Positions 1,515-62,738 of a stretch of DNA of 64,000 nucleotides are shown in pieces. The number at the start of each line of letters is the position of its first letter. Position 1 is the stretch's first letter. The DNA comes from an uncultured Clostridia bacterium. GTDB taxonomy: Bacteria; Bacillota; Clostridia; Peptostreptococcales; Anaerovoracaceae. The stretch lies in contig CAUWIT010000008.1 in the NCBI GenBank assembly GCA_963558965.1, forward strand, positions 11,423 through 75,422, given 5' to 3'. A program made the position numbers and the translations under genes. The notes beneath the pieces were generated by a model that saw only the letters and a list, made by a program, of their open reading frames with translations, made no database searches and was not told the DNA's origin.

Positions 1515-1679
1515 AGCTGTTTGGCTGACCTGGTCTTTGCCCCCACACCTGCCTTGACCCGGATTTTCCGGAGGACTTACTTCTAAACTACGCCATGATC
1601 ACTGCCGCCCTGCGTACAGCTTACGTGGGACCTTTTGCCCGTAGCTGGCTTGGCCTTTCAACCACAGACCCAAACAACT
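1515..1679 (-). ncRNA. raiA-motif RNA (compact variant)
   Basis: Minus strand carries the conserved blocks GTGGTTGAAAG, GCCAG, GGCAAAA, CCACGTAAG, TTAGAAGTAAGTCC and GTGTGGGG-CAAAGACCAGGTC; 10-bp terminal stem AGUUGUUUGG/CCAAACAGCU; canonical position between comF and raiA/hpf. Confidence 0.9.
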
Positions 1680-32229: not shown

Positions 32230-32688
32230 TTAATAATAGATTGTACTATCGCCAAATAATTTTCCGTTTATTTCATATATATGATCAATATGGACAACTG
32301 TCCCATCTTTCATAATTACTTGGTTTTTATAGGTGTCTATTTTTTTGACTTCTCCTACAATATTGAGATATTTGCCTCCTGATTTTCTTTCGTCTGGGAT
32401 AAAGTACTTTATATCTACTTTCACTTTTTGTTTTGCTAGATTTGCTTGGATTAGATTTAATCTGTGATTTATTATTGCTCCAATTTCTTCGGTTATTTGG
32501 TGTTCTTGTTCTGTTAGTCTAGCTGTTTCTGCTATTGCTGCATCGTGTCCTACCATAGCTGCAAATGGAGCGAATTGTGCTGCTCTAGCTTCTCTTGCCA
32601 TTGGAGGATGTTTTTTTGATATTGGTCGTTTCATATTTAGCATATCTTTATACTTATCTGCACATTTTTCTTCGTCGTATTTACTCAT
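32230..32688 (-). CDS. YolD-like protein (Y-family polymerase partner)
   Basis: HPPMAREARAAQFAPFAAMVG, YFIPDERKSGGKY; overlaps the polymerase stop codon. Confidence 0.85.
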   Translation of the reverse strand: MSKYDEEKCADKYKDMLNMKRPISKKHPPMAREARAAQFAPFAAMVGHDAAIAETARLTEQEHQITEEIGAIINHRLNLIQANLAKQKVKVDIKYFIPDERKSGGKYLNIVGEVKKIDTYKNQVIMKDGTVVHIDHIYEINGKLFGDSTIYY

Positions 32689-33777
32689 GCTTTGTGTCCT
32701 CCAATTTGGTTATTTCTGTCTTTGCCGGTTGCTCCCTTTTGCAAGTTTGTTCCCTTTAGTATCATATTTTTTCCAAATTTCTTTTTTATATCTATCAATG
32801 TTTTTTGTATATTTTTTTCGTTTTCTTGATTTTTATCTTCTGCGCTGCTATTCTCAGACAATGGAGACATTTCAGCTAATTCAAACATTGATATTTGTTT
32901 TTCGCCTTTTGAAATTTCTTTATATGCCTCTTCAGTTATCACTTTACACGCTGCAATAGATATTCGGCGCACCAATAAATTTGGATCTACTATTTTTTCA
33001 TACAGCTCCATTACTTTTTTAACTATTGTTGAAGTAGATGAAGTTGGATTGTCGAAGTTTACTGTGCCGTGAGCGTGATATGGCACTTTTCGCCCATAAT
33101 GATCTGTTTTTATCGGCCCTTTGTAATTTGATTTCCTTCCATCTTTTAAATTTGCTATATCATATCCCACAGTCAAAACTACTTGCTCACACAATAAGCC
33201 TTTGTCTACTAAGTCAAGTACAAGGGCATCTGTCATTTCTCTAGTAACTATTTTGACTTTTTCGTATTGGTATGGGCAATGCAAAACTTGACCAGAGCCT
33301 ATGCTTTTGTTATCTGGCTTATATTTTTTTATATCGTCCATGGTGCAAGGCTCATATCCCCATGCGTGATCAATTAAAAGCTCTGCATTTATTCCAAACA
33401 TTTTATATAGCAATTCTTCATTGTAGTACTCATCTGGTTTTCCTATGGAACATCTGGCAATATCCCCCATTGTATATAGTCCTTTTTTCTCCAATTTTTT
33501 TGAGTACCCTTTTCCTACTCTCCAAAAATCAGTTAAAGGTCTATGATCCCATAATTTTTTTCGATATGATATTTCATCTAATTGAGCTATACGAACTCCA
33601 TCTTCATCTGGCTCAATATGTTTTGCTACAACGTCCATAGCTATTTTACTTAAATATAGATTTGTTCCTATGCCAGCTGTTGCAGTGATCCCAGTTGTAT
33701 TTAGCACATCTCTTATTATGGTAATGGCAAGTTCATGTGCTGTCATTTTATATGCCGCTAGATAGTTTGTTACATCC
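32685..33777 (-). CDS. Y-family (ImpB/MucB/UmuC-like) DNA polymerase, exon 2
   Basis: After splicing it continues ...M-DVTNYLAAYKMTAHEL; TAGIGTNLYLSKIAMD and LIDHAWG motifs; joined ORF 34720-34281 + 33777-32685 = 1533 nt, 510 aa. Confidence 0.88.
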
Positions 33778-34280
33778 CTGATTTTTCATTGTCCAATCCT
33801 TTTAAATCTATAAATCCTAACAGATTAGACTTTATGAATTTTGTTGTTCATATAAGTTCGCTACTCCTTATACAGTTCTCTTATGAACTTCTTATGTTTT
33901 CACATAAGCACAGACTATATCTTTTCCCTCATCCTTATCTATTAAGATTAACTGTTAGGGCGAAACCGCTTCCATCACCTATAGCTTGTGATGTACTTCC
34001 CTTACGAGGAATAGTCGTTGAAGTTTCTCCTATTTGGAGCTTACCTGCTGATTGCCGATTAGTAAGTACTTAGGATTTAACCATATACCATCTAATTAAT
34101 TTTTTCTACTTTCGCAACTTTCGCACTTGAGCTTATTTCATCTCTATGCTGTAGTCTAATTAGCTTTACGGGTTTCCAGCAATTCAGTTTCTTTGTTACT
34201 ACATACAGGTTTCCCTATACGCTTACTATTTTTAGCTAATTTTTTTACGACTTAAGTCATAAGTTTCCTTAGCTAGTCTA
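33778..34280 (-). mobile_element. ORF-less mini-IStron: 503-nt group I intron with IS200/IS605-type ends
   Basis: P GAATTGCTGGAAA 34173-34185, Q AATCAGCAGG 34044-34053, R TTCAACGACTA 34012-34022, S AAGATATAGTC 33913-33923; inserted after TTTAT; ends in TCAG; exact removal restores SIDEVFMDVT. Confidence 0.88.
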
Positions 34281-34720
34281 ATAAAAACCTCATCTATAGA
34301 ATAGATATGCATATCTTCTGGGGCAATATATTTTAAATAGATATCGTAAATCCGAGTGCTGTAATCCATATAATATGACATCCTCGGTGTTGCCACTATA
34401 AAATCTATAGCCAAAGACGGATTTGCTTTTAGTTCTAAGTCATTGTCCGATTTACCTAATAATTTATTTCCAGGGGCCTTTGATTGCCTTAAAGCATTGA
34501 CTTCTTTTATTTTTTGTTTTACCTCAAAAAGCCTTGGCCTGCCAGGTATACCGTAAGATTTTAAAGATGGTGATACAGCCAAACAAATTGTTTTATCTGT
34601 TCTGCTGTTATCAGCTACAACTAAATTGGTTGTCAATGGATCTCTGCCTCTCTCTTGACACTCTACAGAAGCATAAAAAGATTTTAAATCAATGGCTATA
34701 TATTTTCGTTCCTTCTCCAT
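34281..34720 (-). CDS. Y-family DNA polymerase, exon 1
   Basis: YIAIDLKSFYASVEC, PRMSYY, catalytic YSIDE just before the intron. Confidence 0.9.
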
Positions 34721-34784
34721 ATCTCACCTCACCTTTTTTCCTTTTCTAGTTAATCCAAGTATATCACATCGCAAGCCTTGTTGC

Positions 34785-34796
34785 AAACATATGTTC
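34785..34796. promoter_or_regulatory. LexA/SOS box overlapping the polymerase promoter
   Basis: AAAC-ATAT-GTTC (one mismatch to Gram-positive GAAC-N4-GTTC), overlapping the -35 of minus-strand TTGCAA-17-TATACT. Confidence 0.7.
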
Positions 34797-34896
34797 TTTT
34801 TTCTGTTTTAAATTAATTTATACTATATATTTGATTAGACTTTTGTGATATACTAAAGTACGATTAAAGATTGAAATGAAGAAAGGAAAATTACCT

Positions 34897-56283: not shown

Positions 56284-56320
56284 CGTATATCTATCTATTA
56301 CAAATGATACTCGTCATTGA

Positions 56321-56485
56321 TATTTTCAAGCAAGTCTCCTGACTTGTGCATCATCACAGACCTTTGCCATCCCAAAAAAACTCTTATTTCAGTGGCTTAT
56401 TAAAGGGCTGCTCCTCACTTACAGTGGCGGTACCGTACAGGACTTTAACCTGTTTCCTTTATTAAGTATATTAACACTTGAAAAT
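56321..56485 (-). promoter_or_regulatory. Cobalamin riboswitch, long class-I type
   Basis: AAGGAAACAGGTTAAAGTCCTGT...CCGCCACTGTAA...GCCACTG...GGGATGGC...AAGTCAGGAGACTTGC; own promoter TTGACA(56527-56532)-17-TAAAAT(56504-56509). Confidence 0.93.
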
Positions 56486-56523
56486 CTATTCCCCTGTCCT
56501 AATATTTTATATCTTTAGCATTA

Positions 56524-62314: not shown

Positions 62315-62366
62315 CCTTATTTTTTACAACACAAAAACAACTTATCTGATCCTCCGTCAGTAAGTT

Positions 62367-62494
62367 AAAATATATATGCAGGTCTCTGGCTTAGGTTTTT
62401 AAATATCCTTCACAGTGGCGGGACCGCGCAGGACTTACACCTGCTTCCCTATTTACCAATTACATTTGCTTATGCAATTCGTACATATATTTTA
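62367..62494 (-). promoter_or_regulatory. Cobalamin riboswitch, short class-II type
   Basis: AATAGGGAAGCAGGTGTAAGTCCTGCGCGGTCCCGCCACTGTGAAGG...CCTAAGCCAGAGACCTGC; lacks the P8-P12 extension. Confidence 0.92.
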
Positions 62495-62738
62495 TTATTT
62501 TGCTATTTAGTATAATTTTATCCTTAAGTCAATTTAATGTAAATAGGTTTAAACAAATTTAGTCTTTAAACTCACCTAAAATTTACGACGTGTAGCAAAA
62601 GTCATTCCTGAATAATAAATATTATTTTTTGTAATGTCAATATATTTATATTAATACATTTTTCTGTGAATCTATTTACCTTTACGCTTTAGTATGGTAT
62701 AATTAAAAGGCTATTTATAATTGAAAGGAGGCGGTTTA

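Follow-up and report, generated by a model that had tools for sequence, protein, structure and literature searches.

A group IA2 intron of the group A IStron lineage, devoid of open reading frames, splits a Y-family DNA polymerase gene in an uncultured Clostridia bacterium

In a 64,000-nucleotide (nt) stretch of contig CAUWIT010000008.1 (assembly GCA_963558965.1) of an uncultured Clostridia bacterium, hereafter called the window, a gene for a Y-family DNA polymerase is split by a 503-nt insert. Judging from its sequence, this insert is a structurally intact group I intron of subgroup IA2 that belongs to the lineage of the group A IStrons, in which such a ribozyme is fused to an insertion sequence (IS) of the IS200/IS605 type. 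It harbours neither tnpA nor tnpB nor fragments of them, and its sole open reading frame (ORF), of 94 amino acids (aa) in antisense orientation, matches no Pfam or NCBIfam family. It is probably the immobile, ORF-less relic of a TTTAT-targeting IStron, kept because it splices. As ORF-less IStrons, PATE-like derivatives and free-standing relatives have already been published, this is not a new kind of element: it is a known type of element in a new host gene. In terms of annotation, the two ORFs on either side of the insert are to be merged as one polymerase gene with an intron.

The polymerase gene lies on the minus strand, and the two ORFs that flank the insert are found at 34720..34232 (162 aa) and 33746..32685 (353 aa). 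Exon 1 ends with ...TAT TCT ATA GAT GAG GTT TTT AT, directly past the catalytic D-E of the SIDE motif, and the removal of exactly 34280..33778 joins ...GAG GTT TTT AT to G GAT GTA..., which yields a 510-aa product with the sequence YSIDEVFMDVT. At its 5' boundary (GTTTTTAT followed by TAGAC) the insert comes directly after TTTAT, and at its 3' boundary (...AAAATCAG; 3' end sequence AUGAAAAAUCAG) it ends in TCAG. We set the 5' splice site after U34281 because the guide of the intron covaries with its target, as described below, and the reading frame then places the 3' site after G33778. The coordinates, the 503-nt length, the TTTAT and TCAG ends, the GACUA/UAGUC strands of P7, the GAAA loop of P9 and the 510-aa join had all been given correctly in the initial annotation, which was made from the sequence alone. 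Without the insert, the exon junction reads GTTTTTAT followed by GGATGTAAC. The joined exons, in which TTTAT meets GGATG, correspond to GAGGTTTTTAT followed by GGATGTAACA, and the syntenic uninterrupted orthologue (locus L179) has GAAGTTTTTATGGATGTGACA at this place; its uninterrupted DNA (GATGAAGTTTTTATGGATGTGACA) matches the joined exons across the junction. A junction one base downstream, which would give FIDVT, was ruled out by the pairing of the guide with UUUAU, by the position of the U.G pair, at U34281, and by the empty site of the orthologue, which is TTTATGGATG.

The joined protein has the Pfam domains PF00817 (IMS, 2.8e-26) and PF11799 (IMS_C, 8.6e-11), and all aligned homologues share the residues of the catalytic D...DE signature, D11 and D143-E144. 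As it scores below the NCBIfam cut-offs for both DinB and UmuC, it represents a divergent subfamily of Y-family polymerases. It is colinear from end to end with more than 100 uninterrupted homologues of ~508 aa (68-79% identity), and 10 of the 14 homologues that were aligned, among them the closest one, have M at the junction. The latter, at L179, is found in the same neighbourhood, with genes for an ABC transporter, a DtxR-type repressor, a Mur ligase, the polymerase, a small coupled ORF and a PPC-domain protein. The polymerase gene is accessory, being present in two of eight genomes of the genus, and the other copy is uninterrupted. The DEVF-MD position is not a recurrent intron site among the homologues, the truncated ones being mostly contig-end fragments; among those checked at this position, the intron is carried only by a 97% allele of the same species. 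In two homologues from other metagenomes (P0196 and P0199; L183) the frame is lost right after DEVFM(D), at the same TTTATG, and the T that follows TTTAT in IStrons is missing. Two further homologues (P0023 and P0207) are named ‘DNA methylase’ in public records, which looks like a propagated misannotation.

The group I identity claimed in the initial annotation is borne out by the Rfam model RF00028, which matches 34226..33891 of the minus strand over its full length (model positions 1-253) with 66 bits (E 1.6e-14), the gathering score being 50 bits. This copy shows complete pairing in P2, P3, P4, P5, P6, P7, P7.1, P7.2, P8, P9, P9.1 and P9.2. In an alignment with 37 non-redundant relatives, these pairs are 90-100% canonical, with many double changes, and the two strands of P7, the guanosine-binding helix, are invariant in all 37; the terminal base of the intron is G33778, the omega-G. 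The extended P5, UAUGG...CCUAAG (34085..34069), contains what we take, from the sequence motif and established knowledge of group I introns, to be the 11-nt receptor for the GAAA tetraloop of P9. P7.1 and P7.2, the hallmark of IA introns, are represented by UUCC/GGAA and CAUCAC/GUGAUG, which covary and lie between P7 and P3'; the assignment of the lineage to IA2 comes from published work (PMC4227781; bioRxiv 10.1101/2023.11.20.567912).

In P1, exon bases UUUAU (34285..34281) and intron bases UA (34280..34279) pair with UAGUAAG (34228..34222; intron positions 53-59), so that the helix comprises seven contiguous pairs whose U.G wobble falls at the 5' splice site. The initial annotation had drawn P1 with one bulge and had expected inefficient splicing as a consequence; P1 is in fact regular, and the real oddity of this intron is the lack of P2.1, to which we return below. 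P1 is extended by P1a, UAGCUAA/UUAGCUA (34275..34269 with 34239..34233), and is topped by an apical hairpin, UUAUGAC-UUAA-GUCGUAA (34262..34245), which is the homologue of the hairpin at the IS605 left end of real IStrons and has been preserved by compensatory changes. The frame of exon 1 enters the intron for 16 codons and stops at a TAA (34234..34232) located just before the guide. A pattern scan for the conserved guide-P2 block, with one genome per species, gave 120 matches in at least 119 DNA stretches. In these 120 loci the guide letter tracks the target: AGTCAG goes with TTGAT in 82, AGTAAG with TTTAT in 36 and AGTTAG with TTGAT in two. By the rules that apply to group I introns, a terminal CAG provides the omega-G and a two-base-pair P9.0, both needed by the ribozyme. 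The TCAG end is thus weak evidence for a transposon end, and since the ribozyme itself imposes both ends, a TTTAT...TCAG signature alone cannot diagnose a live transposon. TTTAT had first been regarded as a departure from the known target motif, but group A IStrons are described as inserting after TTGAT, ATTAT or TTTAT and ending in TCAG (Tourasse 2014, PMC4227781).

BLAST searches against phage and plasmid records returned hundreds of related IA2 introns. The best matches are annotated IStrons, with 77% identity over positions 6-440, in which the ribozyme is followed by tnpB (a plasmid and a phage of C. difficile, a plasmid of C. botulinum) or by tnpA and tnpB (pEG002 of E. gallinarum). The nearest relative is a 1932-nt, tnpB-bearing IStron inserted after TTTAT in valS of Peptacetobacter sp. 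AB845, with 81% identity over positions 1-435. In the tree the two are sisters (SH-aLRT 89), and the pair groups weakly (support 57) with a mostly ORF-less Pectinatus clade. With 77-81% identity to IStron ribozymes, the initial proposal of an ORF-less group I intron of this ribozyme lineage, inserted after a T-rich pentanucleotide, is supported.

Several of these relatives deserve a brief description. The Peptacetobacter IStron (L165:109-2040, corresponding to G061:C1:782508-784439) splits an essential gene, that of valyl-tRNA synthetase, and ends with ...CCTGCGACTTTAGTCATGGGAGGTTCAG; its tnpB appears to be frameshifted, giving pieces of 370 and 93 aa. In Granulicatella balaenopterae DSM 15827 (L112:4655-5120), an ORF-less element of ~465 nt follows TTTAT close to the beginning of a gene for a large surface protein. 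It has the closing helix of IStrons (CCUC...GAGGUUCAG) and their terminus (ACCTC...GAGGTTCAG), and it clearly derives from a full IStron by internal deletion. The 1.4-Mb metagenome-assembled genome (MAG) of Pectinatus sp. MAG060 (G063) yields 47 BLAST matches to the ribozyme family, a few of which are short and some of which may be pieces of one copy (loci L137, L139, L141 and L143-L164, also L019, L020, L043, L048, L109, L124, L129 and L130). Where the 5' end is readable the Pectinatus copies mostly follow TTTAT; they are mostly ORF-less (~430-540 nt), each with a terminal hairpin of its own and a CAG end, and one contig has several of them in a cluster, at intervals of about 1 kb (C1:22-35 kb). 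This MAG also encodes IS605 tnpA and tnpB. For a bacterium this is an unusually high intron load, and one may ask by what means copies without ORFs multiply.

The homology with IStrons ends at position ~440, exactly where their cargo starts. In the relatives, the cargo, be it tnpA/tnpB or a homing endonuclease gene, begins just past P9.2, as exemplified by an Enterocloster phage intron with a GIY-YIG endonuclease gene at this place. In IStrons, a CCUC located just past P9.2 is complementary to the GAGG in the terminal GGGAGGUUCAG, and pairing of the two would enclose the IS. Here, ~113 nt lie downstream of P9, and not ~65 as initially estimated; positions 393-431 correspond to P9.1 and P9.2, which are conserved, and sequence unique to this element is limited to the last 63 nt. 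The cargo position is occupied by a 54-nt RNA hairpin followed by AAAUCAG. For intron positions 381-503, i.e. P9.1, P9.2 and the terminal hairpin together, the RNA fold has a z score of -3.8, and a natural variant, C490U, retains its pair in the terminal hairpin as G.U. The smaller subterminal hairpin of the initial annotation (33834..33811) does exist, inside this longer RNA hairpin (33838..33785), but when folded as single-stranded DNA it does not exceed shuffled sequence in stability. A private terminal hairpin, followed by 0-7 nt and then CAG, is common among the ORF-less relatives (427-540 nt); some likely ones appear to end in ACAG, their 3' ends being read from sequence and unconfirmed.

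The exact exon-1 ORF with its intron-encoded tail was found in at least 23 metagenome contigs and the 97% allele in three more, i.e. at least 26 in total. The contigs with the split allele share synteny, the same 503-nt intron and open exons, with the intron at the same locus in every contig retrieved, and in all 13 that were compared base by base the two exons are open, as is the coupled ORF downstream. Two intron-bearing alleles differ by eight synonymous and five non-synonymous changes, which gives a ratio of non-synonymous to synonymous polymorphism (pN/pS) of 0.16, and by two changes in the intron, both at unpaired positions. No intron-less allele of more than 78% identity was found among 5.8 billion protein clusters. 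These observations point to purifying selection on the host gene since the insertion. The intact fold, the open exons and the pN/pS of 0.16 are what one would expect if the gene were still functional and the intron were therefore spliced. As initially proposed, the polymerase could be active only if the intron is removed from the mRNA.

A LexA/Cheo-box-like operator overlaps the -35 element of the polymerase promoter (Table 1). As the box and the promoter are identical in the syntenic orthologue, and as the same operator motif precedes recA, radA and a gene for a LysM (YneA-like) protein in this genome, it is reasonable to suppose that LexA regulates the gene, hence the label ‘SOS polymerase’. 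In the course of events that we envisage, DNA damage would lift LexA repression and the split gene would be transcribed. Ribosomes translating exon 1 would halt at the UAA 47 nt into the intron, and the ribozyme would fold. GTP would then attack after U34281, at the U.G pair of P1, and exon 1 would in turn attack after the omega-G 33778, giving TTT ATG GAT (...SIDEVFMDVT...) and a full-length polymerase. If the efficiency of splicing were to depend on conditions, this would be a simple system to ask whether a group I intron modulates induced mutagenesis, although nothing that we found indicates such a modulation.

How the insert came to its present state can be read in several ways. The initial annotation took it for a non-autonomous mini-IStron that can still move, mobilised in trans and possibly retaining a partial omega RNA that would guide TnpB to the polymerase site; such an element would be PATE-like, with an IS200/IS605 TnpA as its transposase. 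The insert does share with group A IStrons its position after TTTAT and its TCAG end (PMC4227781), it has a left-end-like hairpin, the genome encodes IS605 tnpA and tnpB, and an ORF-less PATE with IStron ends is known in C. difficile from the legend of fig. S3 of bioRxiv 10.1101/2023.11.20.567912. However, the genome, which is 99.9% complete, has a single locus, with no further copy detected by BLAST, the Rfam model or short-word BLAST. A DNA search of 60 relatives from the same genus, family and order gave no homologue of the element, and no other locus with the same 3' end was found in the genome itself, 115 family loci, IMG/VR or the JGI metagenomes. More specifically, the tail has no homologue in the 115 family loci or in its own genome, resident IS605 copies included, its terminal 20 nt and hairpin have no exact-pattern match in IMG/VR, and its terminal 20 nt have one chance match in the JGI metagenomes, inside an EF-G-like gene (G was excluded as the next base in that scan, so that copies of the polymerase locus were skipped). 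The element has no right-end hairpin matching its left-end hairpin, while the four fully bounded IStrons that were compared all share one, of the GTGACTTTAGTCAT-GGGAGGTTCAG type, and relatives carry ...GTGACTTTAGTCATGGGAGGTTCAG. As for a source of transposase, two near-identical IS200/IS605 copies, both with tnpB, are present outside the window (G000:C14:41129-42851 and G000:C17:624-2186). Their ends (hairpin CCCAyTGGCTTTAGACrrTGGG; right end terminating in GTTCAC) are unrelated to those of the intron, and their tnpA genes are broken, one by an in-frame TAG and the other by fragmentation. Besides the intron, the region has no Rfam match at E<=1, Rfam possibly lacking a model for this type of omega RNA, and the tail scores no higher than shuffles against the right ends, IS and omega regions of the IStrons of C. 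difficile, E. gallinarum and Peptacetobacter. As further copies and right-end features are absent, present mobility is largely refuted and very improbable, and at the DNA level the element is best read as a fixed, single-copy, immobile passenger.

A rather unlikely alternative is that of a primary free-standing intron that never had an IS. It would stem from an ORF-less, hairpin-tailed stock, ancestral to IStrons or exchanging ribozymes with them, and would have arrived by reverse splicing or recombination. The tail has no IS remnant, the needs of the ribozyme alone account for the CAG end, the Pectinatus MAG, whose clade is the one that this intron and its Peptacetobacter sister join weakly, abounds in ORF-less copies of the TTTAT type whose terminal hairpins are unrelated, and group IA2 introns that are free-standing beside IStrons have been reported (PMC4227781; bioRxiv 10.1101/2023.11.20.567912). 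Nevertheless, the closest relative carries tnpB, the apical hairpin of P1 still resembles the TnpA-type left-end hairpin of IStrons (ATGACTTAAGTCGT versus GTGACTTTAGTCAT), a resemblance that is gone in the Pectinatus copies, and the Granulicatella derivative shows that IS loss does occur. It is also conceivable, albeit with a very low probability, that the insertion is dead, the ribozyme having ceased to splice through the loss of P2.1 or through mispairing of its tail with the tetraloop receptor, and that the polymerase is a recent pseudogene. The absence of P2.1 is indeed unique in the family, such mispairing is possible, and the loss of an accessory gene would be tolerated; yet all core helices are intact, the exons and the coupled ORF are open in every contig compared, pN/pS is low and the promoter and operator are conserved. 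Finally, it is tempting to speculate that hairpin-tailed, ORF-less ribozymes of the TTTAT type are self-sufficient mobile introns that enter UUUAU by guide-directed reverse splicing without TnpA or TnpB, and that this one was co-opted as an RNA-level gate on the polymerase. We find this improbable. Were it true, the error-prone polymerase would be made only when the ribozyme folds productively, as a function of GTP, Mg2+ and ribosome traffic, which would amount to a second checkpoint on SOS mutagenesis.

According to the reading that we prefer, that of an immobile relic, the parent would have been a TTTAT-targeting IStron of the IS200/IS605 type. The ribozyme, the UUUAU guide, the left-end-type hairpin and the CAG end would have been kept, and tnpA, tnpB, the omega-RNA scaffold and the right-end hairpin would have been lost since, with the former cargo site now closed by the private 54-nt hairpin. 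The insert would then offer a cleanly bounded natural example of the decay of an IStron to a plain intron, with cargo, right end and P2.1 gone and the catalytic helices all kept. A number of observations weigh against this proposal. The loss of the IS is deduced from the relatives and has left no visible scar, since the tail has no detectable homology to any part of an IS. The selection test rests on 13 substitutions between intron-bearing alleles that are almost identical. P2.1 is missing from this copy only, out of 55 family members, leaving a P2-P3 gap of 13 nt versus 23-50 nt in the others, and its loss might reduce activity. The 3' exon offers no convincing P10, which is normal for IStrons. 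Moreover, 10 nt of the tail, UUAGGAUUUA (33820..33811), form a perfect complement of UAAAUCCUAA (34079..34070) in the P5 tetraloop-receptor hairpin, and their pairing could compete with the correct fold. A designed interaction between the tail and P5 was rejected, and the match is probably a coincidence, because the receptor is conserved in relatives that lack the complement.

The insert can be placed among known systems as follows. Group A IStrons, with CdISt1/CdiIStron of C. difficile and its TTTAT-targeting relatives (Tourasse 2014, PMC4227781; Zedaveinyte 2023, bioRxiv 10.1101/2023.11.20.567912), have the same IA2 ribozyme, with 77-81% identity over intron positions 1-440, and the same P1 architecture with a guide that reads a pentanucleotide, insertion directly 3' of TTTAT and an apical hairpin of the left-end type. 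Their cargo site after P9.2 is also the same, with a closing helix, a few nt and then the CAG 3' end. In contrast, the element described here is devoid of tnpA/tnpB, omega-RNA scaffold, right-end hairpin and GGGAGGTTCAG terminus, its closing helix is UUCAU/AUGAA where theirs is CCUC/GAGG, its P2.1 is deleted and it is single-copy. Two ORF-less derivatives, the group B element BcISt1 of emetic Bacillus cereus (Tourasse 2014) and the PATE with IStron ends of C. difficile 630 (Zedaveinyte 2023, legend of fig. S3), likewise combine the ribozyme with a stem-loop that replaces the ORFs, in ~0.5 kb. Like the present element, BcISt1 is vertically transmitted at a fixed locus, but it is of the IS607 type, inserts after GG and ends in CGG. 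The C. difficile PATE is described in that legend as keeping both IStron ends, whereas the present element has no recognisable right end.

Free-standing IA2 introns, reported in Fusobacterium periodonticum and Turicibacter (Tourasse 2014) and as three standalone copies in C. difficile 630, are also ORF-less and located at IStron-type targets. Here, unlike in those cases, the nearest relative bears tnpB, a left-end-type hairpin is recognisable and the host is a chromosomal gene for an SOS-type polymerase. As for the introns of DNA-metabolism genes, such as recA and nrdE of Bacillus anthracis or phage DNA polymerase genes (PMC3984707), they too reside in conserved catalytic regions and are phenotypically silent if spliced. 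They typically carry, or carried, homing endonucleases and occupy homing sites, while the intron in this polymerase gene obeys the 5-nt target rule of IStrons, at a site that is not recurrently occupied.

Table 1. Coordinates, in the window, of the split polymerase gene, its intron and other features
Feature	Coordinates	Strand	Remarks
LexA/Cheo-box-like operator, AGAACATATGTTTG	34784..34797	-	Overlaps the -35 element of the polymerase promoter
Polymerase promoter	TTGCAA 34786..34781, 17-nt spacer, TATACT 34763..34758	-	Box and promoter span 34797..34758
Exon 1, Y-family DNA polymerase	34281..34720	-	aa 1-146 and two bases of codon 147
Whole insert: ORF-less group IA2 intron, group A IStron lineage	33778..34280	-	503 nt; Rfam match, 77-81% identity to IStron ribozymes, empty-site match
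P1 domain	34222..34285	-	Guide/target covariation in at least 120 family loci and 36 non-redundant sequences
Catalytic core P2-P9	33891..34226	-	P7 34016..34012 with 33917..33913; P7.1/P7.2; P8; P9 33908..33891 with GAAA loop
P9.1 and P9.2 hairpins	33850..33888	-	P9.1 33888..33875, P9.2 33873..33850; intron 393-431; last stretch conserved with IStrons
Lineage-specific terminal hairpin	33785..33838	-	Outer stem UUCAU/AUGAA, inner stem GUCUAAUCU/GGAUUGGAC; occupies the cargo position
3' terminal AAAUCAG	33778..33784	-	P9.0 possible between CA and the UG of J7/9 (UGUG, invariant); omega-G 33778
Exon 2, polymerase	32685..33777	-	Starts G GAT GTA ACA (MDVT...), ends ...IGGHKA
152-aa ORF	32230..32688	-	Overlaps the polymerase stop by 4 nt; same position in orthologue L179 (143 aa)
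raiA RNA	1516-1678	-	Rfam
Cobalamin riboswitch	56312-56496	-	Rfam
Cobalamin riboswitch	62360-62503	-	Rfam

The 152-aa ORF coupled to the polymerase gene matches no Pfam or NCBIfam family, and a YolD/UmuD-like identity that had been guessed for it is unsupported. It may code for an uncharacterised accessory subunit of this polymerase subfamily. Elsewhere in the window, Rfam matches at the gathering level comprise a raiA RNA (132 bits) and two cobalamin riboswitches (98 and 74 bits), all on the minus strand.

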